64,000 bases of DNA from an uncultured beta proteobacterium. GTDB taxonomy: Bacteria > Pseudomonadota > Gammaproteobacteria > Burkholderiales > Burkholderiaceae_F. The stretch covers positions 212,496-276,495 of the forward strand of contig CAWDDF010000010.1 of NCBI GenBank assembly GCA_963801035.1. Direction: 5' to 3'. Shown piece after piece: positions 12,970-60,991 of this stretch. The stretch's first letter is position 1. Each line of letters opens with the position of its first letter. The position numbers were made by a program, and so were the translations under genes. Below the pieces are notes generated by a model. The model was not told where the DNA came from, did no database searches, and saw nothing but the letters and a program-made list of their open reading frames with translations.

Positions 12970-13081
12970 GACGCCTCCTGGCTCGGGAAGACGCTAGCTT
13001 AGCGGGCCGCGGGCACGGCGTGTGCGAGCAAAGCGCAAAGAGCCACGCAGCGACTGTGGCAAGCATGGGAACGAAGAGCGC

Positions 13082-44411: not shown

Positions 44412-44471
44412 GCACATCGGCGCACGCCCAGGAAGCGTCTGTCGCGACTACCACGGTTGGCTGCCCGAACT

Positions 44472-46473
44472 ATGCAAGCGGTGCGCGCGCGCATAAAGCG
44501 ATGGTTAAACCGCCGTGAAGACACGGGTTGTGAGCAAGGTAAGCCCGATCCCGAACCCGAACCCTTTGTCGACAAGGCGCCGCCCGATCGCTTTTGCGAT
44601 CTCGTGCTGACGGGCGGTGTTACCAGCGGCGTCATTTATCCGTCCGTCGCCGTCGAGTTAGCACGCCATTACCGCTTCAAGAACATCGCCGGCACTTCGG
44701 CGGGCGCCATCGCGGCAGCCTTGACGGCGGCGGCGGAATACGCGCGGCGCAAGAGTCTTCCCGGCAGATTTGAGGCATTGAGCGACGTTCCGAAGCGGCT
44801 AGCCGAGGAAGGTCAACGGCAAGACGCGCTTGCTGTCGCTATTCCAACCGTCTCCGAAAACGAAGCGCCTATTCGGGCTTTTTCTTGGCATGTTGAACAA
44901 GAGCGAGGCCGGATCAGGAATGACATGGTCTGGCATGCTCGCCTGGACACTGGTAAAGCAATACTGGTTTGCGTTGGTTGTGCCGCTGCTGCTGGGATTG
45001 GCGCTCGCGTACGCGGTCACGCCGCGCTGGCTTGCGGTGATGGTCGGCCTCTGCGCCTTCGTTACCGCCGGTGTGATATGCGTTGCCCACCGTGTGTACA
45101 GAGACCTGAATGACGGCATGATTTCCAACGGGTTCGGTCTATGCAAAGGAAGCGAAACCAGCGATCCCGAGAATCCCGCTTTGACCGACTGGCTGCACGA
45201 AAATATTCAGAAGATGGCCGAAAAGGCCGACGCAGAGCCGCTGACTTTTAAAGATCTGTGGCGCGCGGAGCCATTACCAGAGTGGCTGGCTGACTTCTTC
45301 CCGCCCGACAAAGGAAGGGCAATCAATCTGCAGATCATTACCGCGAACCTGACCCATGGCCGTCCCTACCGTCTGCCGTTGGATGACGACTCGACCCGTC
45401 TTTTTTTCAAGGAAAGCGAGTGGCGAACATACTTTCCCGCCGGCGTGATGACGCACCTCTTGAAAGACAACGTCTCGCCGCGGTATGCGCCACGCGACAG
45501 CTCGGAGCCGCCCATTGATGGCGACACCGAAGGTCTGCGTGAGCTTCCAAAAGACAAGCTTCCGATCGTAGTTGCCGCGCGCCTGAGCCTGAGCTTCCCG
45601 TTTCTTTTTTCGGCGGTTCCCCTTTGGGCCATCGACTTCGAGCCAAAGATCGAAGTCGACAAAACGCACCGAAGAAAGCTGCGGCGGTGCTGGTTTTCTG
45701 ACGGCGGCATCTGCTCCAATTTTCCGATCCATCTATTTGATGCCTTCCTGCCCAAATGGCCGACCTTTGGCATTTCTTTGGGCCGACGCAGCCCGTTTCG
45801 CCCCGCCGAGCGCACTTGGTTGCCTGACTTTCATAACGAGGGGAGCGCGGACGCTTGGAACCGCTTCGATGATGAAACATCGCTGGCGACCGGCAAGCCG
45901 CGCAAATCGCTGCAGCGGCTCGTCGGTTTCGCGATGAGCATCATCGCGACAGCCAAGGACTGGAATGACAACACCGAGATGCGAATGCCAGGCTACCGCG
46001 ACCGCGTCGTTCGCGTCGGGTTCTGCGACGGTGAGGGAGAATTGAATGTCAGGCTGGACGATAAGGAGATCCTGCGGCTTGCCAGAGACTATGGCACCGC
46101 GGCGGGTAAAAAGCTTGTGGATAGATTCATCGGTCGGGACCCGGACTGCCCTTCGCAGGCCTGGAGAGATCATCGATGGGTGCGCTTCAATGTATTGCTG
46201 CAATCACTGCGCGAGCGCGTCAATATGATCACGCTGGCAGCGGAAGCAACGCCATACACGCAGCCGCTGAAGGAGCAGATCGCCAAAGCGTTCGCGGCGC
46301 GCCCGCTGTACGGCGTTAGGGATCATGAAGCGCCGTTGAGCGCGGCACAGGCCGACGCACTGGACGGGCTGCTCAATGCAATGATTGAACTTGAGCGGCA
46401 GTTCGAGAAGTATGCCGCGCAGCAGCCGTATCAAGCGGAGCCGAGGCCAAGCTTGAGAAATCGTCCGCCCTGA
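44472..46473 (+). CDS. Patatin-like phospholipase with internal TM hairpin and long C-terminal domain, interrupted by one apparent frameshift near 44805-44830
   Basis: Oxyanion region LVLTGGVTSGV. Nucleophile elbow GTSAG (Ser ~44697). Asp of the dyad in WFSDGGICSNFPIHLFD (~45700). Hydrophobic stretches are WFALVVPLLLGLALAYAV and LAVMVGLCAFVTAGVICVA. The two track ORFs (44457..45113 and 44830..46473) are collinear. Confidence 0.8.
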
Positions 46474-46490
46474 TAATCGCCGAGACATCG

Positions 46491-46682
46491 CTATCGGGTT
46501 CTGAGCGAAGTAACCGGCCTTAGGGTCGGTTCAACACATACTGCTTCCACGACACTCCGCCGGCGATGCTTTCCTTGTCTCGAATCATGTGACTCGCCGA
46601 ACACGTCGCGCAGATCGCGACACAGGTGCCCTGCAACGTACTGATCTGGATGTCGACGGTAGCTAACGAAGATCTTCGTCAT
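46491..46682 (-). pseudogene. TIR-domain gene remnant (N-terminal ~55 aa only, frameshifted)
   Basis: MTKIFVSYRRHPDQYVAGHLCRDLRDVFGES continues in another frame as MIRDKESIAGGVSWKQYVLNRP*. This covers only the TIR beta-A/alpha-A/beta-B region. The rest is missing, because the convergent patatin gene ends at 46473. Confidence 0.6.
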
Positions 46683-46748
46683 TACTCAACAATCCGTCGC
46701 GGGCATTGCAGTTTCAACGCGAATATTCGGCAAAGGCTGACTGACCGA

Positions 46749-49700
46749 TCAGTTCGTCCTGCCATACGTCTGCAGTTTCGCCAGCAGCTCTCCGGCTGCG
46801 CGACCCTCGCCGCCTGTAGCGCGCGCTGCGTACTTCGGCAGCACGAACGACGCCTGGTCGATTACCGAGCTCCACATCGAAGGCGCGCTGACGCGGGCGA
46901 ACAGATCCTCGAATTCCTGCTCGATCTCGGGGCGCTCGGCCGCGAGACGCCGCTCTGCGATCGCGATGTACATGCGCAACTCGATGACGCCAACGAAACT
47001 CCAGAAGTCAGGATCGTCTCGCGCCTTGGCCGCGAGACTGTCCCTTATTTCTGCCAACACCGAGTCGTCGAACTTGTGCGAGCTTCTGTTTCCTGCATCG
47101 ACGATCAGCTCAGCCGCCATCCGATTCAGCGCCGGATAAAACAGTGCTGAGCGATCGGTAGCGCGCGCGAGTGCCTCTGCTCGCGCATACGCTGCCTTCA
47201 TGCCGCTAATGGCGGTGAGCTCTTTGTCCGGCTTTCCGGCCGCTGCTTCAATCAACGCGAGTCGCTTCCACGCGGAGCCGCAAAGATTCTCACGCTCGAT
47301 CGAGGGCTGCAGCCTGGTCAGTCCTTCGAGCAAATCGAGCGCGGCCTTGACTTCCGCTCGCGCGTGCTCCAGTTGCGCCGCACTCGGCTTGGCTTTACCG
47401 GTGTGAGCCTGCTCTACAACTTGCAATGCAAGTCGCGAACGCAGGTTGCCGAGTTGTTCGCCCGCCTTGATCGAAGCGCTTCCATCGTTGGCGGCGAGCG
47501 CTTTGCGGTACCACGCGATTGCCGACGCGAAGTCTTTCGTCTCGGCCCACGCGACGCCGTAGGCCTCGGCCACCGCCCCCATGTCACCCCAGTGTTTTCC
47601 GAATTGCTCTTCGAGGTGGCGGATCTTCTCGCGCTGAGTCTCTTTGTCCGCTTTCTGGTAGCGGCTCTTTATCGCCAGTGATTCGAGCGCAAGCGTTAGC
47701 GCGACGGGGGACGCGACACCGGCAAACTCATCGGCCAGGGGCGGAGAGGGGTGCTGTGCATCGCCGACGCCGCGGCGGAAAACCCAGTCAGGATCGCCGT
47801 AGCACTGGTAGGCGCCCCACGTGTTACCTCCTCGCGCGTGCGCTGCGGTGCGCGCTGCCGCCACGGCGTCGATGAAGCGGCGGCCGCATAGCAATGCGTC
47901 GTAGAACGTCGTCGCAAAGATCATTGCAGGCTCGTCTTCAACCGCCCAACCGGCAGCGACGACGCAACGCACGCCGATCTTGATCAGCTCTTCGGCGACG
48001 TTCGCGGCGAAACGCGACCGGTCGTAAGAGCCCGTAAGCACCTCGCTTGGATTGCGTGCCGCCAGATGGCAGCAGTTGACGAACACCAGCTCCGGCACTG
48101 CACGCATGTTGCGAATCTCGCGCGTGCCGAGAAACGAGTCGCCCGACAGCACGACCCCGCGGGGATTGACGAGCTGCTGCAAGGGGTCATCTTGCTTTTT
48201 CGGAATCGGACCCGCCATCTCCGGCGGCTCGCCGTGGCCAGCGATGTGCACGATGCGCCAGTCGCGCTCCATCAACGTGTTGATGACGGTGAGCGCGTCG
48301 GCACCGAACTGCTGCGGGTCATCGGGGCTGATCAGCGCCTTCACTTGTTGCGCGCCAACCGTCTTCAAACGCTCTGCGACCGCGTTCGCCTCGATGCGCG
48401 CGCCGATCAGGCGCGGGTACCGGCTATCGCATTTGGGTTCGCCGATTACGAGCACGCTCGCATCGGCGTCGGCGTCGACGATCTGTTGGCGAAACTCTGC
48501 CGTCCGCAGCTTGCGCAGAAGCTTCGCGCGAATCGCCCACGGCGGCTGGTCGTGCGACGTGGCGCCTTGGTCGGTGTCGAGCAGCTCCCAGGGAATTCCG
48601 GCGGTGCCGCTGTCGAGCTCCATCACCATTTCGGTGGTCCCGCCGAGGAACGGCTCCATCTCGACCGGCACCAGCAGCTGGAACAGCGTGCGGCCGATAC
48701 GCCGATCGGTGTTCTGATCGTTCGATGCGCTGGCTACCAGCTCGCGCAGCAGCGGCCCCTGTGTGGCCTGTGCACGAACTTCAGTTCGCGCCCGCTTGGT
48801 ATCGAGCGTGTACGCGATCATGGCGTCGTTGTGCAGGCCGAGTTGTGTGACGGCCGAGATGAAGTCGTAGTTGACACCTCGATAGCTCGAGTCGAGCGGC
48901 CTCCGCAGCGCGCCGGTCCCTTGGCGCACGACGTCGGTGACCGCATAGCGGCCCGGTGTTGCCGTGTCCTGCACCTGCAACGAACGCCAGGCCTCGGTCG
49001 CGCGGTCGAGATACAGCTCGACCAGATGCAGGTGGCCGACGCGAGGCCAGCGGCGAACGGGGCGCTTGCTGTCGGCTGCGCGCTCCAGGGTCTCCTTTTC
49101 ATTGGCCTCACGCAGACGATCGTCCGCCTCACGCACGCCTTGTACGACGAGCTGCGCCGACTGGCCCACGGTGATCCCGGTACCGCCGCTGCCGATCATC
49201 GTGGCCGCGAGCTCGAACAGAGCGGGAGCGTCGGCGTTGGTCTCGCCGATACGTTGTGCCCATGCGATCGTCGCTTGCCGCACCGTGTGAACAAGCTCAG
49301 CGGGGGAAAGTTTGCCTTCCTCACCGAGGCCGACCACGACCACCGCTTCAGGTCGCGGCGGCAGCCACGGGTTGTCCGGATCTGCCTGCATATTGATGAA
49401 CACCTGGTGCGTGCCGGTCGGTACCGGGTATAGGCCGACCTTCAGCGCGTCTTCCATCGCGCCGCCTATCAGCTGGTTCATCACGGCTTCGGTGCCCGAC
49501 AAACGCAGAGAGCGATAGTGTCCGATCAATAACGGCTCGCGGATGAAACGAAGGTCGCCATTGACGACCGTGACTTGCAACGCGGCGCCGCGCGCGGCCG
49601 GACCGGCGATGGTCTGCCGATCGTCGAGCGAAAGCAGTTCGCGCGCGTTCTCCGGCGGCGGTCCGGTCACCCGGGTGCGTGACGGCCGGCTGCGTACATG

Positions 49701-52377
49701 CGCGACCGGTGCGGTTGCGCCGCGAACCTCCGCCTCAGCAAACGGCTGCAGCAAACCCGTAGTGCCGGTGCTCAGCAGTTCCACGTAAGCGGGAAACGCC
49801 GCCTTCTCGTCCGGCAAGCCGCCATGCTCGCAGTCGAGTTGCCACGTGCGGACACCCGGCAGGCGCGCGCTCGTAATCGTCACACGGCCGTCGCCGTGAT
49901 TCGGCGCGTCGAGATACACAAGCCCTTCGTCGCCGATCTCGTAGCCATCGGGTGTGAAGCGCGCTTGACCCACGACGAGCTTCACCTTGTCGCTGAACGA
50001 GGCCAGGTCGGCTGCTATCTGCGCATCCAGGCGCTGGCGCAGGGCCAGCGCGCGGTCAAGCACGGACTGTGGCGGCACGCCCCAGGTGCACGACTCTATC
50101 TGCAGTCCTTCGTGGTGCCACCAACTGTTCTCGCGCACGCGTTTCAGATCCTCGTCGGCGAGCGCCTGCCACGTCGCGTGTTGGTCGAGCGCAAGCTTGG
50201 TGTCTAGCAGCCCGGCCTGCAGTTGAATGAATCCCGGCATCCGAGCCATCAGCGCGCGCGCGGTGCGATCCTGAAACGGTGCGCCGAAAGTCACCAGCAG
50301 ATTGCCGAACGTGTCGTCGCCGGATAGCACCTGCATCGGAGCCCACGAACCGCCGTTCGGCGTGCCTAGCATCAACAAGCGCGCATCGGGGTGCGCCATC
50401 ATCCGCTGCCAAACCTTCGGCTTCTCGAGCTGCATCGTGCGCGCGAGCACTCCGCCCATCGAGTGAGCGAGCAGGCGGACCGGCTTACCGCTCGCCTTGC
50501 GTGCGTCGAGCGCGGCAGTGACCGCGTCTGCCAGACGCGCCGCTTCGTCTTCTATCGGACGCCGCCAATCGAACGCGAATTCGATGACCTCGTGCGTCTT
50601 TGCCAGATACTCGCCGAGGTCGTCATAGCTCATCCCGACTGGCCCGTCGGGCTCGACACCGTCGGGCTTGCCGGTGTAGTCGAGCTTCTTGAGGCCGTTG
50701 ATCAGGCGCCAGCCGAGCCAGATGCGTTTGCCGTTGACCTTTAGGTTGCTGCCCAAGATGCCGGGCAGCACGAACACCGCTGGCTTGTCGCTCGCGGGCT
50801 TGCCGTCGTCGGCTCCGCGTATGCGGCCACGCACGCCGGTGGCCGATTCGCCGGACCACGACAGCGGCCCAATGACGCGAAAGCCGGTGGGCATGTCTTG
50901 CGTGAGCGCGTTGACAATGGCTTCGGCCGTGCGCTCGTTGCTGAAATAGTTGAAGTGCGAAACCTTGCCGCCCTGGTCGAGCACGAACGTCGCCCCGGCG
51001 GCACGTGGAGCACCGCCGTACATCGAACGCGTCTGAACCACCAGGTCGTTATCGGTCCAGTAAAACGAATCGGCCAGCAGCGTCTTCAGCCACGACATCA
51101 CCGAGTCGCCCTCGATGTCGCCGGCCACCACGCGCAATTCGCCCGGGATCGGCTCGTCTACCGCATGCAGCCAGCGCACCAGCGGACTGTCGGGAATCTG
51201 CGCCGCGAGGCCGGGAATCTTGTCGGGGTCTGCGCGTCGCTGTGCCACCTCTCCCAGGAAGTCGACGAGCACGGGCGCGACCGGAATGCCGGCCAGTTCC
51301 AGGGTCCACTTGAACACCGACAAGTACGCGTCGAGTCGCTTGGACGCGAGCAGCGTGCCGCGCGCCGGGCATGCCACGCGCACGATGCGCTCGACCTTGA
51401 TACCGCGTGTTTTCACCTCGTCGACGAGCGTCTTCAGCGCATCGCGCTGCGCTTTGTATTCGGTGCCCTTGAACAATGCCGTGTCGTCGGGGCTCAGCTT
51501 CGGGTTTGCACAAACGCGCGCCAGTACTTCCGCCACCAACCCGCCGCGCGAATGAGTGACCAAGTGCAGGCGCGCTCCCTTGGGCAGCGCCTGCACGAGC
51601 GTCAACGCATTGCTGATCGGGCCAACGCCCAGCGTCGGATGCTCGAGTCCATAAACTCGGTCGGCATACTTTGCGAACAGCGTGCGCACGTGCTGTGGGT
51701 ACTGCGACCACAGTTTGGAAAATGAGCCGCTGGTCGTCGTGAACGTGCCATGCACGAACACCAGCAGCGGCCCGCCGTCGGCCGCGGCCGGCGCCTGCGC
51801 AAGCGGCTTGCCGGTGCCCTTCAGCGGCGGCAGCGATTCGCGCGGCAATGCATACAGGCCAGCGGTTACCTGATTGTCGACACGTTGCACCGCCTTCGTG
51901 ACTACGAAGTCGGCTGCATCGCCTTTGCTGACGCCGGTGACCACCTCGATCGCCGACAGCAACACGTCGCCCAGGAAGCCGCGGGTCGCACCACGGACTG
52001 GCGCTTCTTTCTCGAGTCCGCGCCAACGCAGTTGCGCGGGAACTCGTACCTCGTTGGGTCCCGGTTGATCAACACCCTGCTCCGCGAGTTCGTTTGATTT
52101 GGCCTTGCTGACCCAGCATCAGGTCGCGTGCGTTTTCGGGATGCAGGGTCAGTGCCGGTCCGCCTGCGATGTGCAGCACGACAACGTCCTCGCCAGGCAT
52201 CGCTGCAACGCGTACCTCGGCACCGACGCCGCGCTGCGCGCCAACGCGTACGGATTGCTTCAGAACTCCGCTGGTCAGCCCCGCCGGCAGCGGTGCGGCC
52301 GCCGCGCCGCGCGTTGCGGCGGGCTGCTCCTGTCCGGGAACGAGAAAGACAATCGGCTGTGCAGCGGTCGTTGCCAT
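46749..52377 (-). CDS. Giant multidomain protein: N-terminal leader domain / two lipase-like alpha/beta-hydrolase modules / LAP-N (macro-fold)-like module / CHAT protease / C-terminal helical repeats; one apparent frameshift between 52072 and 52118
   Basis: Track ORF 46749..51965 (1738 aa) has several motifs. Hydrolase 1 is LLVFVHGTFT…LVTHSRGG (Ser ~51551). Hydrolase 2, LCAT/PGAP1-like, is FVLPGILGS…FDWRRP…LLAHSMGG (Ser ~50462). The LAP-N-like pattern is VTVVNGDL…LLIGHY…AVVVVGLGEEGKLSPAELVHTVRQA. The CHAT dyad is RIVHIAGHG (~48236) and LVFVNCCHLA (48069-48074). Its frame stays open upstream to 52118 and overlaps the end of ORF 52069..52467. The latter's internal ATG at 52377 (MATTAAQPIVFLVPG) has an aagga RBS and sits 19 nt after the amidase stop. 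Confidence 0.75.
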
Positions 52378-52396
52378 CCGTCGATTCCTTATGACT

Positions 52397-53104
52397 TTAG
52401 CGGCGTACGAGCGTCGAGCGCGTGCGCGCTCGAGTTTTCTTCTTCGGCGCTTTGTGCATGACGCCAACTTTCACCGCGCCGCGCTGAACCGCCATCGCGG
52501 GCGCGTTGCGATCGAGCGCGCGGCCGGCGATTGCCGCCAGTGGAAACGCGGGCCCAGGATCCTGCTTGCGTCCGCGCGCGATGTCTTCGTGGCCGAGCAC
52601 GTCCTGCAGTCCGTAGTAGTCGACTAGCAGCTTGGCCAACTCGTGCGCACGCTCTATCTGCACTTCGGTGTAGACGTGCCACGGCCGCGTGCCGCCGCCG
52701 TGTTTGTGCTCTGCGAGCATCACATCGCCTGCACCGTATTCCTTGCCGAACCACGCGATGAACTTGTCGCCGACCCTATTCAACCAACCGGCATTGTCCA
52801 TCTCAATGCCGATCGAAGCGCGGTTCAGCCCCACGAGTCCATTCCACTGGCTGACTCCGGCATGCCAGGTGACGATGTTGAACGGCGCGAGTTGCACGAT
52901 GCGCCCGTCGCGCGACACCACCAGATGTGCAGACGCGTTTCCCTGCGGCTTGCGAGTGCACAGCGACTCGACCGAGCTGTCGGCCGACCGGCCCGCCGTG
53001 TAGTGGAACACCAGAAAGCGTGCTTTCAATTCGCCGCCGCAGTTCGGCGTGGCGCGGAAGCTCACGCCGTCTCCGATCAGCCGATGATTCTCGATGCTCA
53101 GCAT
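52397..53104 (-). CDS. N-acetylmuramoyl-L-alanine amidase (Amidase_2; AmpD/PGRP-type)
   Basis: Track ORF 52397..53296. The preferred start is ATG 53104 (MLSIENHRLIG), 7 nt after the caspase stop. Motifs are FLVFHYTAG…ASAHLVVSRDGRIVQL…TWHAGVS…SIGIEMDN…GHEDIA…KQDPGPAFP. Confidence 0.85.
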   Translation of the reverse strand: MLSIENHRLIGDGVSFRATPNCGGELKARFLVFHYTAGRSADSSVESLCTRKPQGNASAHLVVSRDGRIVQLAPFNIVTWHAGVSQWNGLVGLNRASIGIEMDNAGWLNRVGDKFIAWFGKEYGAGDVMLAEHKHGGGTRPWHVYTEVQIERAHELAKLLVDYYGLQDVLGHEDIARGRKQDPGPAFPLAAIAGRALDRNAPAMAVQRGAVKVGVMHKAPKKKTRARTRSTLVRR

Positions 53105-53111
53105 GGACGGC

Positions 53112-54030
53112 TTACACCGTAAATGGACGCTGCGCGACGAAGCGCGCGACGTCGCCGAGCAGATACAGATTCGGCGTCTGTCCTGGCGGCATGCCGGCCC
53201 GGATAGCGGCGTGAAAACTTGCGTAGTTTCCTTGGTAGGCGCCGCGGTTCCACACTTGCAACAGCTGCCCCGTAAAGGCGCCGTTATAGTCGCCATCCAT
53301 CGACGTCTGGTTGTCCTGGCAGCCGGAGATAAGAATCACTGCGGCTTTGAACTTGCGCACGATCGCACTGACGCGACCGCTGCTTACGCTGAGGTTCGAC
53401 AGCACCGCATCCGGATCAGCGATACTGGCTTTGCCGGCATTCTTGGCGATGTCGGCCTGCAGCTTGTCGTAGAACTTTTGATGCTGCTCGTATGCCCGGC
53501 GCCCGACCTCGACCGGCATCATCTTTGAGCGACCAATGACTAACGTGCCATCTGCATTCGGCCGACGAGCGCGCGTGACGGTGCCGGAGTGGCAGCTGTC
53601 GGATAACACGAGGATGCGCACGCCCGTCGGCGAAGCGGCTCAGCTCGTAGTACAGCTCGTCGTCGATCAGCTGACCGTCGTACAGACACCAAGTCTCGTC
53701 CTGCTTGTCGGATTCGTCGCCGGTGATGTCGGGCACCTGGCCGCCATGACCCGAGAAGGTGAGGAAGAAAAAGTCTCCTGCACGCAGCGACTTGGCGGCA
53801 TCACGAATGCCGGCCAGTATGTTCGCGCGCGTGCCCTTCTTCGTCAGCAACACGCTCGTCTTCATGCCCTGCGCTCGGGCAAGCGCAGCCAAGTCGTGCG
53901 CGTCGAATTCACACGCCGCGAGAGGTCCGCTCCAGCCGCCGTAGGCCGAAGGGCTCACCGTGTTCAGACCAATATTCAGCGACAGCGCCCGCGGCTTGGT
54001 CGCGAGTGCCTTGCGTCGTTTGCCTGCCAT
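53112..54030 (-). CDS. Caspase-fold (peptidase C14) protease, interrupted by one apparent frameshift near 53620-53632
   Basis: ATG 54030 ([23 protein letters not shown]) follows a gggaggag RBS. The catalytic His is in [11 protein letters not shown] (~53746-53748). After the shift at a gacggg run the frame reads [13 protein letters not shown], with the catalytic Cys at 53592-53594. Confidence 0.8.
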
Positions 54031-54204
54031 GCGCTCCTCCCTTACTTTCTTGGGCTCGATCATCGCCACAATCGATCGCCTCGGCAACCGCTTACATCGA
54101 TGAGTGCGTCGTGAAAAATGGACAAGATGCTTGTTGACTACTGCGTTAACGTTCGCGAAACGTGACCATGACGCTCTTCGAATCCCGGTAGCCACGTCAT
54201 CGCC

Positions 54205-55989
54205 ATGTTCGGTCCCCGCCTGTTCGTCAGCTACCGCCGCGCCGACTCGGAGGCCACCGCTGGCCGCCTGTTCGAGGCGCTGAGAGCGCGGTTCGGAGAT
54301 CGCGTGTTCTTCGATACATCCAGTATTCCGTACGGAGAAGACTTCCGACGCGTGATACGAACGCGCATAGCCGCGAGCGACGTGGTGCTTGTCGTCATCG
54401 GAAAACAATGGCTCACTGCCGCCGACGAGCGCGGGCTCAGGCTGCAGCAGCCGGACGATCCGGTTCGCTTCGAGATCGAAACCGCACTCGCGCGCGACTC
54501 GGTGCGAGTAGTGCCGGTGAGAATTGATCACGCTGAGCCGCCGCCCGAGTCGGCCCTGCCGGCGTCGATTGGCGCGCTGGCGGCGCTGAACATGGCGCAG
54601 CTGCGCAACGAAACGTTCGACGTCGATTTCAACGCGCTGGTCGAACAACTGCACGGTCGGATGCCCGGCGACGTCGTCCGCGAGCTCGACTGGAGCAGTC
54701 GCGTCAAGGCGACAGCAGCGGCGTTTCCAATCGCGGCGATAGCGATTGCACTGCTGGCGCTGCTGGTTGCATGGTCAGGCGCACTCGACCTGTTGCACAT
54801 CGACACGCATGTGCAACGGCTCTTGCTCGCTGCCGGCGCCCGCAATGCCGGTGAGCCGGTACTGCTGGTGGGCATCGACGCAGCAAGCGAGCGTGAGCGT
54901 GGCAGACCCTTTGGGCCCGCTGAGCATGTGGCCGCCTGGCGCCGCGACCACGCGCGCCTGATCGATCGTGCTGCGCTCGCTGGCGCTAAGGCCGTGGTGT
55001 TCGATATTTTTTTCGAACGCACGACCGATGCCGATGCCGAGCTCGCCGCTGCTGCGCGTCGCGCCGCCAAAGGAGCAACACCGACGCGTGTGGTCTTCGG
55101 CGTGCGCCGCCTCGCAGGCGACGCGCCCGAATTGCCGCCGATCCTCCGCGACGCTGGGCAATGGGGGTCGCTGTGCCTGATCGACCGCGGTGGTGGTGCT
55201 TTGTGGTCGACGCCGCTTGCAATCGCGCAGCGCAGCAGCACGCGCGCCGGCGACTCGGTTGCAGCGGTACATCCAGCGCTGTCTTTGGCGGCTCTGGTGG
55301 GCGAACCGCTACGCGCAGCCGATCTGTCCCGGCGTGAGCTGCGATTCGACGGGCCGCTGCGTCTAACGCCGGTTCGCTTCAGTACGGTCGAGCCGACGCG
55401 GCTCGACCATCCTTCGTGCCCCATCGCGCGTGACGGCGACGACCAGTTGACGCTGCTGCTGCGCGTTGCCCCGGCTGGGCACTGGCGCGACGCGGCGCGC
55501 CAAGTGTCGTACGCCGACGCGCTGGATTCGGCGCGCGTCGGCGACGATCGCTTCAAAGGCCGTGTCGTCCTCGTTGGAGCGATGGCGCTCGAGCGTCCCG
55601 AAGCGAACGCCGACATCCACATCGTTCGCGAAGGCTTTGTGCCTCGCCAAGTGTTCGGCGTCGAACTGCAGGCCGACGCCATCGCGACACTCGCCAGTGG
55701 CCGCGTGCCGCAACTGCTTACCGTCGGGGGTCATTTCGCTACGACCCTGCTGGCCTGCGCTCTCGGGGCGGTAGCTGCGCTCGGGTTGTATCGCCAACCG
55801 CGATGGTGGCGCCGTGGTGCGCTGCTTGCGCTGATGCTCGCCTGGATGCTCGTTGCGTGGTGGCTAGCGACGCGCGACATCGTGATCAACGCAGCGCATG
55901 ATGTGATCGCGATGCTGCTGTCGTATCTTGCGCTGCGCGCGACGCAATGGTTCGCGCGCACCTTCCAACGCGTGCGGAGACCGACATGA
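54205..55989 (+). CDS. TIR-domain protein fused to a CHASE2 extracytoplasmic sensor domain (multi-pass membrane protein)
   Basis: The TIR domain is [47 protein letters not shown]…[12 protein letters not shown]…[14 protein letters not shown] helix follows. The CHASE2 pattern is [12 protein letters not shown]…[29 protein letters not shown] … [18 protein letters not shown]. There are C-terminal TM helices. Confidence 0.85.
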
Positions 55990-56651
55990 GTACCTCAGCC
56001 AGTTGTCTGTGTCGCTGGCCTACATTCCTGGCGCTGGTGTTGACGCTGGCCGGCAGCGCCAACGCGCAAACCGCGTTGCCGCCGGCGCAGTTGTGGCAGA
56101 TCGCACGCGAAGTGCCCGGCGCCGACCCGCGCTGGCAGCGCATCGACGCCGACAAGACCGCGGTGCGGGTATGGCGCGGCGGTCGCGAGATTGCGGTTCA
56201 GCGACTAATGACCTTGCTGCCGGGCGACGAGTTAGAGACGGGTCAGAACGTAGCCGTGGTACTTCGCTTTCGCGATGCCGGCGAGACGTTGATACATAAA
56301 GGCACGCGTGTGCGAATCGGCTCGCTCGAAGTCGTTTTCGGGCGCGTGTTCGCGCAGTTGCGGAATCGGTTCACGGTGTCGAGCCAGACTGTCGTTGCTG
56401 GCGTCGAGGGGACGCGTTTTCTGTTCGAGGTCGGTCGCGATCGTGCGGTGCGGATCGCGGTGGCCGACGGTGCAGTCGTGTGCCGTTCGCCGAAGGACGC
56501 ATGGGCGCCGGTGCGGCTGCGTGGCAACGAGTCGCTGTTGGCGCGCTACCCGGGCCGTGGGCCGCCAGCAGTGGGGAAGGCAGACGCGCGCGAGATGCGC
56601 GCGTACGAGGAACTGTCGCTGCAAATTGGTCGCGCGACCGCTGCAAGATAG
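55986..56651 (+). CDS. Secreted FecR-domain protein
   Basis: ATG 55986 overlaps the TIR-CHASE2 stop (ATGA). The signal peptide is …WPTFLALVLTLAGSANAQ. The FecR-type beta-rich core is GDELETGQNVAVVLRF…TVSSQTVVAGVEGTRFLFEV. Confidence 0.8.
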   Translation: MSTSASCLCRWPTFLALVLTLAGSANAQTALPPAQLWQIAREVPGADPRWQRIDADKTAVRVWRGGREIAVQRLMTLLPGDELETGQNVAVVLRFRDAGETLIHKGTRVRIGSLEVVFGRVFAQLRNRFTVSSQTVVAGVEGTRFLFEVGRDRAVRIAVADGAVVCRSPKDAWAPVRLRGNESLLARYPGRGPPAVGKADAREMRAYEELSLQIGRATAAR

Positions 56652-56663
56652 TAGAAGCGGCCA

Positions 56664-57257
56664 GTGAAAAAGATGGCAACGCCGCGGCTCATATTTTTGT
56701 TTAGCGGTCACATGATCGACAAGCTGGGCCGTAGGCATCCGCGGTTTCCGCCCGAGTGCGAGCCGAGCGTCGCCGCTGCAATCGACGCCAAGCTAACCGA
56801 GCTGGGTGCTGATGCTAATGATTTGGGAATTACTCAGGGTGCGTGCGGAGGCGATCTGCTGTTCGCCGAAGCCATGTTGAAGCGCGGTGCAGCGCTGGAG
56901 CTGCATTTGCCGCTTACTGAAGAAGTGTTCATTAACCGGTCGGTCGATTTCGAGAAGGCGTCGCTCAATAGTCCCGACCGCTGGCGCGATCGGTTTCTCG
57001 CTGTCCGGCGCCATCCGTCCGTTGCTGTGACTGTGATGAGCAACGACGGCCAAGCGTCAGACGATGTATTCGAACGCTGCAATCTGTGGATGGTCGAGCG
57101 CGCACTTTCCTTCGGCGCCGACAAAGTGCGCTTTATCTGCGTGTGGAACGGCGAAGGCGGCGACGGGCCGGGTGGCACAGAACACATGCGTAAAGCGGTG
57201 GAGCAAAGCGGCGGCGCGCAGTACTGGATCGATACTCGCAAACTGTGTCAGCAATAG
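56664..57257 (+). CDS. Hypothetical protein, possibly SLOG-fold (LOG/DprA/YpsA-like Rossmannoid)
   Basis: 197 aa. LIFLFSGHMID…GITQGACGGDLLFAEAMLKRGAALELHLP resembles the (S/Q)G-x-x-G-x-D…A glycine-rich loop of SLOG families. A later motif is VWNGEGGDGPGGTEHM. This is weak, motif-level evidence only. The start could be GTG 56664 or ATG 56673. Confidence 0.35.
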   Translation: MKKMATPRLIFLFSGHMIDKLGRRHPRFPPECEPSVAAAIDAKLTELGADANDLGITQGACGGDLLFAEAMLKRGAALELHLPLTEEVFINRSVDFEKASLNSPDRWRDRFLAVRRHPSVAVTVMSNDGQASDDVFERCNLWMVERALSFGADKVRFICVWNGEGGDGPGGTEHMRKAVEQSGGAQYWIDTRKLCQQ

Positions 57258-57311
57258 CGCGGCCAAACATCACCAACAAACAATTCTTCCCCGTCATTGC
57301 AAGGAAATTCG

Positions 57312-58187
57312 ATGCCCGACAATCTGCAGCCCATCACGCAGGTCGACTCCGCTGCGTTCGAAAGACCGGAGTTCCAGCAATCATTGAACGACTATTCCCG
57401 AGTATTCCTCGCGGAAGGCGATTCGTGGTTCAGCTACGGTTCGACGAAGTTCCGCAATACATTTACTTCGATGGAGTTGCCTTACCCCGCCTGTGTGCTC
57501 AATATTTCCGAACCCGGCGACACGCTGCGTCGAATGCACGAGACAACTCGCAATCGGCAGTTCTACTTTTATCTGCGAAACAAGAGCGGGCGACGCTGGA
57601 ACGCAATTTTTCTTTCTGGTGGTGGCAATGACCTGATGGACGCTTTGTGGAACAAGGAGGCGCAGCGCTCTGAAATATTGGTTAGGCCGAACGCGCCGGG
57701 AAGCATCGACCAATCGAACCTGCGCTCAGTGATTAACGAGGACGCTCTCGATGCACTGCTTAACTACATCAAGGTCAACGTCGCTCAGATCGTCGCGCAG
57801 GGACGCGACGGTCCAGGCAGCGACAGCCAGGGTGTTCCGCTGCTGATGCACACCTACGCGCTGGCGCAACCTCGTAACGCGCCGGTGCGGCACGTGGGAG
57901 GAGGGCCCTGGCTCTTTCCGGCGTGCGTATGGCTGGGGATCGATTCGGCGCTGTGGTTGGACCTTAGTCGGTTGCTGCTGGAAGAGCTCGCTGCGTGCAT
58001 CAGGTCAATCGACCTGCCAAATTTTCATGTTGTCGATACGTTGAAACTGACTACGACACTGATACCAGCCGCTGCTGGGACTACGGGAGATTCAAACGAC
58101 TGGGACAATGAAATTCATCCCAATCGCGGCGGCTACAAAAAACTCGCTGCCACCTGGACGGAGGAGATCGCCAAGATACTTCCCTGA
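57312..58187 (+). CDS. SGNH/GDSL-type hydrolase (esterase/lipase fold)
   Basis: ATG 57312 follows an aagga RBS. Block I is FLAEGDSWFSYG. Block III is IFLSGGGNDLMD. Block V-like is WDNEIHPN. Confidence 0.7.
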   Translation: MPDNLQPITQVDSAAFERPEFQQSLNDYSRVFLAEGDSWFSYGSTKFRNTFTSMELPYPACVLNISEPGDTLRRMHETTRNRQFYFYLRNKSGRRWNAIFLSGGGNDLMDALWNKEAQRSEILVRPNAPGSIDQSNLRSVINEDALDALLNYIKVNVAQIVAQGRDGPGSDSQGVPLLMHTYALAQPRNAPVRHVGGGPWLFPACVWLGIDSALWLDLSRLLLEELAACIRSIDLPNFHVVDTLKLTTTLIPAAAGTTGDSNDWDNEIHPNRGGYKKLAATWTEEIAKILP

Positions 58188-58451
58188 TGCAGGAACGCAG
58201 TAGCGCTTGACACGATTCTTGACTACGTCCTCAAGGTGCGTCATCGAACCCCACGCGCCCTCGCTGTCGAGCACTGCGCGATGGATTTGAGTTCGTATAA
58301 CACGCCAGAATCTGGCTCCTTGAGTCTCCTCGCGCAAGTGTCAGGTCGATGCGCCTGGAGCGCGAATAAGCAGTAGTCGCTCAGCAGATTCGCTTTTACA
58401 CTCGGCAGCGAAGGCCGGGGCTGCGGCGGGCCCGGGCAAGCGGAGGTGCCG

Positions 58452-59429
58452 ATGGCCGACTTGTTCGTCAGCTATTCGCGCGAAGACAAGGCGCGGGCAG
58501 CCGAAGTCGTGCGTCTGCTTGAAGACTATGGGTGGGACGTTTTCTGGGATCAGGAAACGCGCGCGGGTGAGCTGTGGCCGGAGGTGCTCGAAGAAGAGCT
58601 CGGTAGGGCGCGCTGCCTGGTGGCGCTGTGGACCACTACCTCGATTGCGAGCCGCTGGGTTCGCATAGAGGCATACGAGGCGCTACAAAGCGAAAAGCTG
58701 GTACCGGTGCTGCTAGATAAAGTGCGGCCACCGCTCGAATTCCGGCAGACACAGACTTTCGATCTTATCGGCTGGAACGGTGACCGCGACGATGCTCGAC
58801 TAGCGCATTTTTTGGCAGATCTGACGTCACTTGTGAAGGCGCCCAGTTCAGACCGTGCGTCACCTCGAGCTCAGATCGTCGTTCCAACCACACTGCGTCG
58901 TCCGATGCCGCCCGCGACGCCAACGAATGAGGCGCATGCAGGCAGTGGCAAGGCCGATGCGCAATCTGCAGCGATTGGTTCCCAACCTCAGGAGACTCGC
59001 CGCTCTGCTTCTTCGTCGCGAGCTTCCGGGTCGACAGCTCCTTCCTCGCGCGGTCTCGTTATCGGTTTTGGCGTCACTGCGGCGGTCGCTGCTGCTGTCT
59101 GGTTGATCAGCACGATGGACTTTTCCGCCGAATCGAGTCCGCCGATCGAGGCAAAACAGTCGTTGCAGACAACACCGGCTGCACCGTCGACCAGCGTTGC
59201 CGCGCCGGTGCCTCCGACTGTCCAGCCAGCACCTGCCACGCCCCCGCCTGCTCAGACGGCTGCCATTGCCCCAGGTACATCCCCTCCGCAGGGTTCCAAA
59301 CCTGCTGCTAAGCAGCCGTCAAAGTTGCGGTCGTCTCGTTGCCTGGCGATCGAGGAAAAGTTTCAGCAAACCGGACAGATAACGGTGACCGAGCGAGACC
59401 TTCTTCGCAGCAAGGAGTGCCAATCGTGA
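58452..59429 (+). CDS. TIR-domain protein with TM helix and Pro/Ala-rich extracytoplasmic tail
   Basis: A GGAGG RBS precedes ATG 58452. The TIR domain is MADLFVSYSREDKARAAEVVRLLEDYGWDVFWDQETRAGELW…CLVALWTTTSIASRWVRIEAYEAL. The TM helix is LVIGFGVTAAVAAAVWLIS. A P/A/T-rich linker and a short Cys-containing C-terminus follow. Confidence 0.85.
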   Translation: MADLFVSYSREDKARAAEVVRLLEDYGWDVFWDQETRAGELWPEVLEEELGRARCLVALWTTTSIASRWVRIEAYEALQSEKLVPVLLDKVRPPLEFRQTQTFDLIGWNGDRDDARLAHFLADLTSLVKAPSSDRASPRAQIVVPTTLRRPMPPATPTNEAHAGSGKADAQSAAIGSQPQETRRSASSSRASGSTAPSSRGLVIGFGVTAAVAAAVWLISTMDFSAESSPPIEAKQSLQTTPAAPSTSVAAPVPPTVQPAPATPPPAQTAAIAPGTSPPQGSKPAAKQPSKLRSSRCLAIEEKFQQTGQITVTERDLLRSKECQS

Positions 59430-59437
59430 AAGCGTCG

Positions 59438-60742
59438 ATGATTGCCATTAGATCGCTCACGCAAGCGAGCCGATCGTGTCGCATAACTGTGCTCATCGCA
59501 TTCTGCGCAACTTCTATAGCGGGCTGCGCGGTGCCGCCGACTGCAGCTCCTCCGCCAGCGGCGGCGACTGCGCCGACGCCCGCACTAGCGCCACCGCCGG
59601 CCGCGCCCGCGCCGGTCGCAGTACCTAGCGCGCCGGCGCCCCCTGCAGTGCTGCCACTCGAAGATGCGCTGCTGGCAGCGGCCAACAACCTGTTTTCGAC
59701 GGCTTCAACCGCGCTCGCTGCGCCGCCCGCGCAAAGGGTCGTCGTGATCGATCCGCTGGTTGATGGTGTCTCGCATATACAAACTGTCACCACGCAGTCG
59801 CTTGAAACAAAAATCCAAGGACTGGTGAAAGCGAAGTACCCGGGCTTTGACGCGCAGCCGTTTTCGCGCGCGTCGGTAAGGCAGGCGCCGATCGTGCTCG
59901 TCGGAACTTTCACGGCGATCGATCTGAAGAACCAGACCGGCGGCGCGCGCGACGCTTTTCGCATCTGCTTGGCATTGGCCGATTTGAAGTCTGGGCTGAT
60001 CGTTGCAAAAGGGGTTGCCCGCGCAAAGATCGAAGGCGTGAACCTGACGCCGCTCCCGCATCTTCAGGATGCGCCGGCGTGGACTAAGGATCCTTCTGTC
60101 GACGCCTATGTCCGAACCTGCCAGGCAACGAAGCCAGGCGACCGCATTGACCCGGCATACCTGGACGGAATTCTCGCGGCCTCCTTGATCGCTGAAGCGA
60201 GCGACCTCTTCGACGCCGGCCGCTACCAGGAGGCAATCGACGTCTACCGCAGCGCACTTTCAACTCCCAAGGGCGATCAACTGCGCGTGCACAACGGCAT
60301 TTACAGCGCGAGCTGGAAGCTCGGCCGTCGCGCCGATGCCGAGCGCGCGTTCAGTGAAGCCGTAAGGGTAGGACTTGCGAACAATCGGCTGGGGGTGAAG
60401 TTTCTGTTCCGCCCCGGCACGACTGAGTTCGTGACCGATCCGCGACTGAACGCGCCGTATCCAATGTGGATGAGCCAGATTGCACAGCGCGCCACCGCAC
60501 AGGCTGCTTGCCTTCAAGTAGTCGGGCACACCAGTCCAACCGGACCTGAACCATTAAACGAGCGGCTGTCGGTGCTGCGGGCCGAGAATGTCAAGATTCG
60601 GCTCGAGCGCGAATCGCCAAAACTCAAAGGACGCATCATCGCAAGCGGCGCCGGCTCGCGAGAAAAACTCGTGGGCACCGGCACCGATGATGTGCGCGAT
60701 GCACTTGACCGGCGTGTCGAGTTCAAAGTCGTGCCCTGCTGA
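59438..60742 (+). CDS. Lipoprotein with Pro/Ala-rich linker, TPR-like segment and OmpA-like peptidoglycan-binding C-terminal domain
   Basis: The lipobox is in MIAIRSLTQASRSCRITVLIAFCATSIAGC. The OmpA_C pattern is LQVVGHTSPTGPEPLNERLSVLRAENV…ALDRRVEFKVV. It starts 9 nt after the TIR gene stop; an alternative GTG start overlaps that stop. Confidence 0.75.
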   Translation: MIAIRSLTQASRSCRITVLIAFCATSIAGCAVPPTAAPPPAAATAPTPALAPPPAAPAPVAVPSAPAPPAVLPLEDALLAAANNLFSTASTALAAPPAQRVVVIDPLVDGVSHIQTVTTQSLETKIQGLVKAKYPGFDAQPFSRASVRQAPIVLVGTFTAIDLKNQTGGARDAFRICLALADLKSGLIVAKGVARAKIEGVNLTPLPHLQDAPAWTKDPSVDAYVRTCQATKPGDRIDPAYLDGILAASLIAEASDLFDAGRYQEAIDVYRSALSTPKGDQLRVHNGIYSASWKLGRRADAERAFSEAVRVGLANNRLGVKFLFRPGTTEFVTDPRLNAPYPMWMSQIAQRATAQAACLQVVGHTSPTGPEPLNERLSVLRAENVKIRLERESPKLKGRIIASGAGSREKLVGTGTDDVRDALDRRVEFKVVPC

Positions 60743-60915
60743 GTTGCTTGCGTCAGTGCCTCATACCTCGGCGCGTCGTACGGTAACGTCGAAGAAGGAA
60801 TTGCCGAGGTAGTGGGCGTTGATCTTCCCGCCCGAACCGCGATCTGGCGATCGACTTCCCGCTTCACTGCAAGGTCTGCGAACCATGCGGGCAGCATTAC
60901 AAGGGACTGATTTAT

Positions 60916-60991
<76 letters not shown>

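Follow-up and report, generated by a model that had tools for sequence, protein, structure and literature searches.

The window analysed in this study, a stretch of 64,000 nt, corresponds to positions 212,496-276,495 (forward strand) of contig CAWDDF010000010.1 (GCA_963801035.1) from an uncultured beta proteobacterium of the Burkholderiaceae_F. On its minus strand it carries a gene for a caspase-fold protease which is directly followed by genes for a peptidoglycan amidase and for a giant multidomain protein with a CHAT protease domain. These three genes, with positions counted from the first letter of the window, are as follows:

53112..54030, minus strand: Peptidase_C14 caspase gene, classed by alignment as a GSU0716-type bacterial type I metacaspase with p20 and p10 and no prodomain, 305 aa after repair of the frame
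52397..53104, minus strand: Amidase_2 gene, N-acetylmuramoyl-L-alanine amidase of the PGRP fold, 235 aa, predicted to be cytoplasmic
46749..52377, minus strand: giant multidomain protein, about 1,876 aa after repair of a break at about 52075-52080

In the direction of transcription, the caspase gene is separated by 7 nt (gccgtcc) from the amidase gene, and the latter by 19 nt from the gene of the giant. The caspase stop codon TAA lies at 53114-53112 and the amidase ATG at 53104, so that the first gap is exactly 7 nt; the giant starts with the ATG at 52377, 19 nt past the amidase stop. This arrangement of a caspase and an amidase heading a leftward operon, with the giant downstream, had been described in an earlier sequence-only reading of the same DNA and is borne out by the coordinates of the open reading frames (ORFs). 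The assignment of a C14 protease with its catalytic His and Cys and of an Amidase_2/PGRP-type enzyme, made in the same reading, agrees with the Pfam searches, the match to PDB entry 3BIJ and the Foldseek comparisons given below. A scan of positions 46300-54400 for sigma-70 promoters and terminators yielded no promoter-like site, and terminator-like sites were found at background level.

The caspase gene of the window does not form one uninterrupted frame and is split into 54030-53416 and 53621-53112. The frame starting with the ATG at 54030 (minus strand) encodes the motif FSGHGG with His95 (codon 53748-53746), continues as nonsense after ...SRFAD and stops at 53416. The second frame, an ORF at 53112-53621 (minus strand), contains Cys146 (codon 53594-53592) within DSCHSG as well as the p10-like sequence SGCQDNQTS...RPFTV. 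The break consists of one extra A at position 53627, where the window reads GCCGACGGGCG and the metagenome contig L001 reads GCCG-CGGGCG; without the additional base, positions 53620-53630 would read GCCGCGGGCG. The insertion thus lies inside the interval 53615-53635, in which a frameshift had been suspected beforehand, and outside any homopolymer. The peptide SRFAAGVRILV is present in all caspase relatives including that of L001 (P0001), which is 99% identical, intact and 305 aa long. A programmed frameshift was ruled out, since the frame is intact in the relatives and the 99%-identical copy lacks the insertion.

After joining of the two frames, the 305-aa protein matches the Pfam family Peptidase_C14 (PF00656) with 76.3 bits (E 3.8e-21, cut-off 21.4), in a search that had been proposed with the initial description. 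Among proteins of known structure, GSU0716 of Geobacter sulfurreducens (PDB 3BIJ) can be aligned with it over the whole length (E 2.2e-84); the matches to eukaryotic metacaspases are weaker. According to the 3BIJ alignment the p10 subunit is present and a prodomain is absent, only 12 residues standing ahead of the first strand, and on this basis we assign the protein to the bacterial type I metacaspases of the GSU0716 type, which have no prodomain. The motifs DSCHSG and SGCQDNQTS are, as we assume from general knowledge of the family, those of Arg/Lys-specific metacaspases. Neither a signal peptide nor a transmembrane (TM) segment was detected in a scan of the caspase sequence.

The amidase gene extends from the ATG at 53104 to the TAA at 52397 and encodes 235 aa, which match Amidase_2 (PF01510) with 95.5 bits (E 4.3e-27, cut-off 26), the second of the two proposed profile searches. 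The start codon appears to be assigned correctly, because the homologues begin with the same MLxIxNHRL, and the sequence scan revealed neither a hydrophobic signal nor a TM segment. The earlier statement that no signal peptide is visible at the chosen start therefore holds, and the lack of hydrophobic N-terminal or TM segments in both caspase and amidase is consistent with a cytoplasmic location of the two proteins. Sequence matches in the PDB comprise AmiD (4e-19) and AmpDh2 and also AmpD and AmpDh3. An AlphaFold2 (AF2) model of moderate quality, with a predicted local distance difference test (pLDDT) score of 70, was matched by Foldseek with a probability of 1.0 to AmpD, AmiD, AmpDh2, endolysins and PGRPs. 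In the alignment of the amidase family (A1), residues H34, H172, D182, E101 and K180 do not vary; by analogy with AmpD-family enzymes they are presumably the zinc ligands and catalytic residues. Orthology to AmpD was ruled out, the window protein scoring 79.6 bits against the curated cut-off of 143 of the NCBIfam equivalog NF008758; a stand-alone relative (P0235) reaches 89.1 bits against the same cut-off.

Outside its own family, the nearest relatives of the amidase are phage amidases; the identity amounts to 36-43% for phages in GenBank and reaches 54% on IMG/VR contigs. A typical family member has about 300 aa and comprises the catalytic domain, an SH3b domain and a tail rich in K, R, A and P. 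In the clade of the window, SH3b has been lost by a clean in-frame deletion and the K/R-rich tail, which is predicted to be disordered, has been kept; this SH3b-less form is common to several sequences of 95-99% identity (P0121, P0122). At residues ~120-146 (window 52667-52747) the family carries a specific insertion, GKEY...AEHKHGGGxRPWH, with the invariant residues His133, His135 and His143. The insertion is not found in AmiD, AmpDh2 or AmpD, and the model has pLDDT values below 50 at residues 132-139. As judged from its sequence, this His-rich insertion could form an extra metal or ligand site.

The giant protein is composed, in this order, of an N-terminal domain (about residues 1-140), a DUF7379 alpha/beta hydrolase, an LCAT/PGAP1-like alpha/beta hydrolase, a CHAT protease domain and TPR-S. 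The domains were assigned by Pfam on the 1,738-aa ORF at 46749-51965, and L009 and L010 served as the reference for joining the two frames. In the window the motifs THSRGG (DUF7379), AHSMGG (LCAT/PGAP1-like) and HIAGHG together with VNCCHL (CHAT) are present, which we interpret as catalytic. The N-terminal domain is specific to the family and shows repeated xTRG motifs. An EAD- or Death-like adaptor was sought with an HMM (hidden Markov model) of this domain in the window and in 91 loci, all translated in six frames, and the only matches were the N-terminal ends of giants. The reading frame of the giant is broken near 52076 (window 52070-52085), which the earlier reading had left unremarked. 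In 11 relatives the giant is translated uninterrupted from the N-terminal domain onwards, with lengths of 1,841-1,929 aa; that this domain and the rest share one frame was seen in 6 inspected loci and, by a hand check of tblastn offsets as multiples of three, in 7 loci. The giant loses its frame at one and the same GC-rich site in the window and in L001 (at ~11950), where the two sequences differ by one base (GCAG-GGTG versus GCAGCGGTG). The site could be a hot spot of mutation or reflect a systematic error of the consensus. An error in a G5 homopolymer was dismissed, as the site reads GCAG(GC)GGTG.

For a survey of the gene linkage, one genome per GTDB species was scanned with the alignment of the amidase family, which resulted in 80 loci with amidases of 57-85% identity, and these loci were searched by tblastn with every protein of the island described below. 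The caspase gene (57-88% identity) adjoins the amidase gene in 33 of the 80 species-level loci. When the metagenome loci L001 and L008 are included, 34 pairs could be measured, and in 30 of them the caspase gene lies 3-97 nt upstream of the amidase gene. A TIR gene stands between the two in three pairs (L019, L046, L064), and the order is inverted in the remaining one, from Sphaerotilus mobilis (L056). The giant was also found in about 26 loci with the pair, mostly directly downstream, and the distance between the amidase and giant genes ranges from -7 to 105 nt in most loci. TIR genes occur in 20 caspase-amidase loci, many of them encoding a TM helix and an extracytoplasmic domain. The hosts belong to Hydrogenophaga (including the isolates Root209 and H. 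intermedia MER 62), Rubrivivax, Rhizobacter, Piscinibacter, Sphaerotilus and other Burkholderiales.

The two proteins have also diverged together. Over 31 caspase-amidase pairs that were each recovered as a single high-scoring segment pair (HSP), the pairwise distances of caspases and amidases are correlated with r = 0.88 at divergences of up to 44%, a value reached in none of 2000 permutations. The motifs SGHG and D[SA]CHSG are kept in all 31 of these caspases and the p10 motif in 30. In the initial description it had been considered that the amidase might be a housekeeping AmpD which is adjacent only by chance; the score of 79.6 against 143 bits, the recurrence in 33 of 80 loci and the co-divergence speak against this, and chance is refuted as the cause of the adjacency. 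The position of the amidase inside the operon and the occurrence of the same island in two unrelated contexts furthermore identify the amidase as cargo of the island and not as a core gene that happens to adjoin a hot spot for insertions. An origin of the pair as a phage-borne module was also considered and rejected: viral contigs hold amidases of 35-54% identity and a single caspase relative of 39%, none of them with the pair.

Both families are found in other settings as well. The amidase is accompanied by a TM-containing TIR protein and no caspase in 11 of the 80 loci, mainly from Accumulibacter, and by the giant alone in one. In Accumulibacter loci L032, L040, L041, L043, L045, L047-L049, L053 and L057 the TIR gene lies about 70 nt downstream of the amidase gene; the close relatives L033 and L034 have no TIR gene. 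By eye, the amidase-linked TIR proteins of L032 (Accumulibacter), L035 (Hydrogenophaga) and L019 look like one family, the L035 protein having a TM-like segment and sharing its C-terminal region with that of L019, and the L032 sequence being broken by masked bases. In Uliginosibacterium sp. H1 (L062), a gene for a SLOG-superfamily protein is followed by a giant-like gene (31% identity, DUF7379-LCAT-CHAT) and by the amidase gene. The amidase stands alone, often among housekeeping genes, in 35 of the 80 loci, of which 5 have flanks too short for a judgement. In a neighbor-joining tree nearly all caspase-linked amidases fall into one broad clade, adjacent to which the TIR-linked Accumulibacter amidases are placed, the unlinked Nitrospira forms being distant. 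A lone caspase of 71% identity was observed in Nitrospira sp. CR1.1 (L002/L003, 801-9222 and 10001-10912), with a complete CRISPR-Cas cassette of type I-E at a distance of about 500 nt; the small ORFs after this caspase gene (172, 79 and 161 aa) have no annotation and recur in other Nitrospira loci.

The three core genes of the window belong to a larger block which includes a second, divergent operon and ends in a tRNA gene:

46653..60954, no strand assigned: 14.3-kb island, delimited by blastn against L001 (98.9% identity), with its right edge within tRNA-Phe
54205..55989, plus strand: TIR-CHASE2 membrane receptor (Pfam TIR_2 1.4e-14, CHASE2 1.2e-22; TM scan)
55947..56651, plus strand: FecR-like protein with an N-terminal signal peptide, exported (Pfam FecR 4.2e-05; N-terminus inspected)
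56664..57257, plus strand: SLOG-superfamily (YpsA/DprA/LOG-like) protein, 194-197 aa (AF2 and Foldseek)
57297..58187, plus strand: GDSL/SGNH-like hydrolase without signal peptide (Lipase_GDSL_2 and Lipase_GDSL weak and below cut-off; GDS motif)
58446..59429, plus strand: second TIR protein, one TM segment (Pfam TIR_2 6.9e-22; TM scan)
59339..60742, plus strand: TPR and OmpA-like peptidoglycan-binding lipoprotein (Pfam OmpA, TPR; lipobox-like IAGC)
60916-60991, minus strand: tRNA-Phe at the right edge of the island

The segment 46653-60954 is 98.9% identical to metagenome contig L001, and the flanks are unrelated according to blastn. On the right side, the homology ends at 60954 inside tRNA-Phe, and L001 (3077-3120) retains only about 40 nt from the 3′ part of the tRNA. 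The sequence comparison suggests that the 14.3-kb block is a tRNA-Phe-associated mobile genomic island with the kind of edge expected at an island junction. Neither direct nor inverted repeats were found that connect the two ends of the island, and a second copy of the tRNA-Phe 3′ segment is absent from the window. The sequence-only reading had also named TIR proteins and a STAND ATPase as neighbors of the pair; TIR genes do lie inside the island, and the STAND-like cyclase-ATPase (37029-41204) falls outside the block conserved in L001.

The divergent operon starts at 54205 with the TIR-CHASE2 gene. According to Pfam and the TM scan, its product of 594 aa has a cytoplasmic TIR_2 domain, four TM-like segments and a periplasmic CHASE2 domain, and it gives ThsB-like matches in PADLOC and NCBIfam. 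With CHASE2, the exported FecR-like protein, the TM-containing TIR protein and the OmpA-like lipoprotein, the plus-strand operon is predicted to face the envelope; the SLOG protein, which is cytoplasmic, and the SGNH-like hydrolase complete it. The protein encoded at 56664-57257 had no HMM match in Pfam, PADLOC or NCBIfam. Its AF2 model (pLDDT 86) was matched by Foldseek to YpsA (2nx2, E 1e-5, TM-score 0.61/0.66) and then to DprA, ShosA and YgdH, and by this structural match the 197-aa protein has the Rossmann-like fold of the SLOG superfamily. It carries the motifs GACGGDLLFAE and GGDGPGGTEHM and has about 1,800 homologues which are not covered by a Pfam family. Homologues adjoin the giant in L062 and the caspase in L012 and L014, and elsewhere they occur among SIR2, NUDIX, nSTAND and TIR genes (L094). 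Judging from the modelled fold, the protein is a candidate binder of a nucleotide signal.

To the left of the island, the window encodes a 1,391-aa protein (37029-41204, plus strand) composed of a guanylate/adenylate cyclase domain, a STAND-like AAA_16 domain and TPR, as well as a further TIR protein of 476 aa (25782-27212, minus strand). This part of the window resembles a variable region of defence genes.

Abortive-infection systems of bacteria count proteases of the caspase-like and CHAT types, as well as TIR proteins, among their established components. Starting from what the programs return, namely the domain identities, the conserved catalytic motifs, the gene order, the co-divergence, the mobility and the absence of TM and signal segments from caspase and amidase, we tentatively favor, at a likelihood somewhat short of even, the reading that metacaspase and amidase cooperate in a horizontally mobile, multi-enzyme conflict or programmed-death system of the Burkholderiales in which the amidase would serve as the lytic effector. 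The core of this system consists of metacaspase, amidase and giant in this order, usually with a TM-containing TIR protein, and in the clade of the window the envelope-facing divergent operon accompanies it. In the cascade that we envisage, the periplasmic domains of the TIR receptors and/or TPR-S of the giant would sense an envelope or invader signal. TIR chemistry, perhaps by way of the SLOG protein, and the CHAT protease might then activate the metacaspase, and the lipase-like domains of the giant could damage the inner membrane. Through this damage the latent, endolysin-like cytoplasmic amidase would gain access to the sacculus and lyse the cell. More speculatively, the metacaspase may trim the K/R-rich tail of the amidase or the xTRG-rich N-terminal domain of the giant. 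The order of steps is favored by three precedents discussed at the end of this text, a CHAT protease acting on a caspase, TIR signalling acting on a caspase-like protease and the association of hydrolases with caspase domains, in combination with the domains of the giant. The role of effector is further supported by the endolysin-like family architecture of Amidase_2 plus SH3b and by phage amidases being the closest relatives outside the family. Separate architectures that retain the amidase also speak for the favored reading, namely the one with a TM-containing TIR protein in Accumulibacter, the SLOG, giant-like and amidase series of Uliginosibacterium sp. H1 and the order caspase, TIR, amidase in L019, L046 and L064.

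Several observations weigh against this interpretation. No system was named at the locus by PADLOC, and of the three core genes, two have a broken frame in this window. The K/R tail and linker are alike in linked and unlinked amidases. About five loci with long downstream flanks (L020, L022, L036, L056, L061) have the pair and no detectable giant, and since the lipase domains are missing along with it, the amidase has no obvious route to the wall in these loci; Pfam searches on the genes flanking the pair in the giant-less L022, L036 and L056 gave no matches, where the ORFs may be spurious in the GC-rich DNA. Stand-alone amidases are located beside the genes for ATP-citrate lyase and aconitase in Nitrospira and beside IspF in Accumulibacter, and caspase homologues of about 70% identity stand alone in Nitrotoga and Nitrospira. 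As both families thus also occur alone among housekeeping genes, neither is defensive by nature. It is the amidase that stays constant and its death-type partners that vary, a pattern which would fit a sensor or regulator as well as an effector, and the steps of the proposed cascade themselves rest on inference.

These points lead to the alternative that the amidase is a sensing or regulatory arm, which we regard as unlikely and still as the main rival. Here, the amidase would process anhydromuropeptides imported after wall damage by phage lysins, type VI secretion system (T6SS) amidases or antibiotics, and by making or removing a stem-peptide ligand, for instance one for TPR-S, it would set the threshold of the metacaspase, TIR and CHAT proteins. 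The amidase would then be a hub with three alternative death-type partners depending on the lineage, i.e. the caspase, the TM-containing TIR protein and the CHAT giant. Its lack of a secretion signal, the match of its fold and of the invariant expected zinc and catalytic positions to AmpD, AmiD and catalytic PGRPs, the envelope-facing remainder of the island (CHASE2, exported FecR-like protein, OmpA-like lipoprotein) and the pairs without a lipase-bearing giant (L020, L022, L036, L056, L061) all agree with such a role, and the conserved stand-alone amidases in housekeeping contexts suggest a metabolic substrate. The wall-binding SH3b domain of the family and its likeness to phage amidases point instead to polymeric peptidoglycan, the protein stays below the AmpD equivalog cut-off, and an AmpG-like permease and an AmpR-like regulator were not found in the island. 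As the expected catalytic positions are fully kept, the amidase is in any case not a non-catalytic receptor like PGRP-LC.

A doubtful explanation, to which we give the same low likelihood as to the sensing arm, is that the locus in this genome is a decaying relic, with real frameshifts in caspase and giant and with the loss of SH3b as a part of the decay. The inserted A at 53627 is not homopolymeric, and real inactivation does happen: the isolate Hydrogenophaga sp. Root209 (L050, 9270-9300) has a genuine caspase deletion of about 20 nt relative to L035 which shifts the frame, its amidase, giant and TIR genes being still open, and the caspase of L011 is split too. The deletion in Root209 may reflect selection against an active caspase. 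For the window, the relic is opposed by the intact caspase in the 98.9%-identical L001, whose own breaks fall elsewhere, in the form of an extra T in TIR-CHASE2, or differ at the shared spot in the giant. The SH3b-less amidase occurs in several sequences of 95-99% identity (P0121, P0122), and neither stop codons nor larger deletions are present. In addition, other genes of the window are split in a pattern typical of long-read consensus errors. The patatin profile is spread over two overlapping ORFs (44457-45113 and 44830-46473, plus strand), a CheB/CheR gene (13022-15103, plus strand) overlaps a PAS-histidine kinase gene (14932-17895, plus strand) by about 170 nt, and an AMP-binding enzyme (19727-21303, plus strand) lacks profile positions 1-160. 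Such scattered single-base breaks in near-identical sequences suggest long-read consensus error and a general burden of indels, and the breaks in caspase and giant are, from these comparisons, more likely consensus errors than real mutations.

Quite unlikely in our estimation is the more far-reaching idea of the amidase as a pattern-recognition arm, that is, a catalytic, PGRP-like cytoplasmic reader of imported peptidoglycan fragments which would be wired to the metacaspase, TIR and CHAT-lipase proteins; if true, it would represent a prokaryotic counterpart, and possibly an antecedent, of the PGRP/NOD to caspase/TIR signalling of animals. Least probable is ordinary wall turnover or developmental autolysis in floc-, sheath- or filament-forming Burkholderiales with TIR, CHAT and SLOG genes merely sharing a hot spot, for although the two families have a wide distribution, are strongly conserved and often occur unlinked, bacterial type I metacaspases have been described without a link to defence (PMC3734836) and PADLOC recognises no system, the amidase gene is enclosed between caspase and giant in a tightly spaced operon, the whole island moves as a unit, the associations with TIR, giant and SLOG recur in differing gene orders, and the region of the window also has a patatin-like gene, a STAND-like cyclase and further TIR genes.

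The association itself is strong, being based on dozens of species, several gene orders, co-divergence and a mobile island. If the amidase acts as the executioner, as in the reading that we favor, the system would kill by a new mechanism, a self-lysis that needs no holin and is gated by proteases together with lipases. As a sensor, the amidase would constitute a bacterial axis from a PGRP to caspase and TIR proteins, built from the same three folds as in animal innate immunity. In addition, our results provide a first functional context for the GSU0716 metacaspase family, the members of which are proposed ancestors of eukaryotic metacaspases, and for the unannotated SLOG-fold family with its approximately 1,800 members.

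In comparison with known systems, no NCBIfam equivalog was found for any protein of the island. Bacterial type I metacaspases without prodomain are known from Beta- and Deltaproteobacteria, Actinobacteria and Nitrospirae, and neither a function nor a partner has been described for the class (Choi & Berges 2013, PMC3734836). The caspase of the window resembles the GSU0716 metacaspases in its whole-length match, in p20 and p10, in the motifs FSGHG, DSCHSG and SGCQDNQTS, in the missing prodomain and in the taxa concerned (Betaproteobacteria, Nitrospirae); it differs from the family as described by its coupling to an amidase and a CHAT giant and by the frameshift in the window copy. The amidase shares the Amidase_2 fold and the expected His-His-Asp and Glu positions with AmpD, AmiD, AmpDh2-3, phage Amidase_2 endolysins and animal PGRPs. 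Like AmpD and canonical endolysins it has no signal peptide, and like many endolysins its family carries SH3b. It differs from these proteins in that it scores below the cut-off of the AmpD equivalog, contains a family-specific His-rich insertion and a K/R tail, and lacks a lipobox of the AmiD/AmpDh2 type. It also does not qualify as a phage endolysin, with no phage or holin genes as neighbors and no SH3b in the window copy.

Type IV Thoeris is an operon of a short TIR protein and the Arg-specific caspase-like protease ThsE, separated by no more than one gene, in which N7-cADPR made by the TIR protein activates the protease (Rousset et al., bioRxiv 10.1101/2024.10.24.620036), and it is this system that stands behind the defence pairing of TIR and caspase-like proteins which the sequence-only reading had mentioned. 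The island has in common with it a TIR protein and a C14 protease with metacaspase-like motifs (basic P1) in one locus, and in L019, L046 and L064 the TIR gene directly follows the caspase gene. Unlike in type IV Thoeris, with its short soluble TIR proteins, the TIR proteins are long membrane receptors (with CHASE2, or with a TM segment and an extracytoplasmic domain), the adjacent TIR-CHASE2 gene is divergent, the caspase is a bare catalytic domain of 305 aa, and the locus adds an amidase, a CHAT giant and a SLOG protein; the PADLOC model ‘caspase’ matches the window caspase weakly, with 38 bits. In type III-B CRISPR systems, SAVED-CHAT cleaves and thereby activates PCaspase (bioRxiv 10.1101/2023.06.23.546230). 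A CHAT protease encoded together with a separate small caspase-family protease is found here as well. The giant differs from SAVED-CHAT in lacking a SAVED domain (Pfam), and the locus has no source of cyclic oligoadenylate; the sensor would be TPR-S and/or TIR. No Cas families were detected among the window ORFs scanned with Pfam.

In known conflict systems, caspase-superfamily domains are reported to be always accompanied by an alpha/beta hydrolase (Kaur et al. 2020, PMC7159879), and peptidoglycan-degrading effectors such as lysozyme and papain-like peptidase occur in NTP-dependent conflict systems (PMC7159879). The island resembles the MoxR-vWA (VMAP) systems in that alpha/beta hydrolases are joined to a caspase-superfamily (CHAT) domain and TIR and SLOG proteins are present; MoxR, vWA and VMAP were not found in Pfam scans of every island ORF. 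It differs from the conflict systems of that survey in that the peptidoglycan enzyme is a free Amidase_2 protein without an EAD adaptor and that the conserved core contains neither a STAND nor any other NTPase. An Amidase_2 protein partnered with caspase, CHAT or TIR proteins is not described in the literature searched, the coverage of which was incomplete, so that this amounts to absence of evidence only; to this extent, the initial impression that an amidase as third partner had gone unreported stands. Set beside these systems, a peptidoglycan amidase as a fixed partner represents an unusual and well-supported third member of protease- and TIR-based conflict systems.

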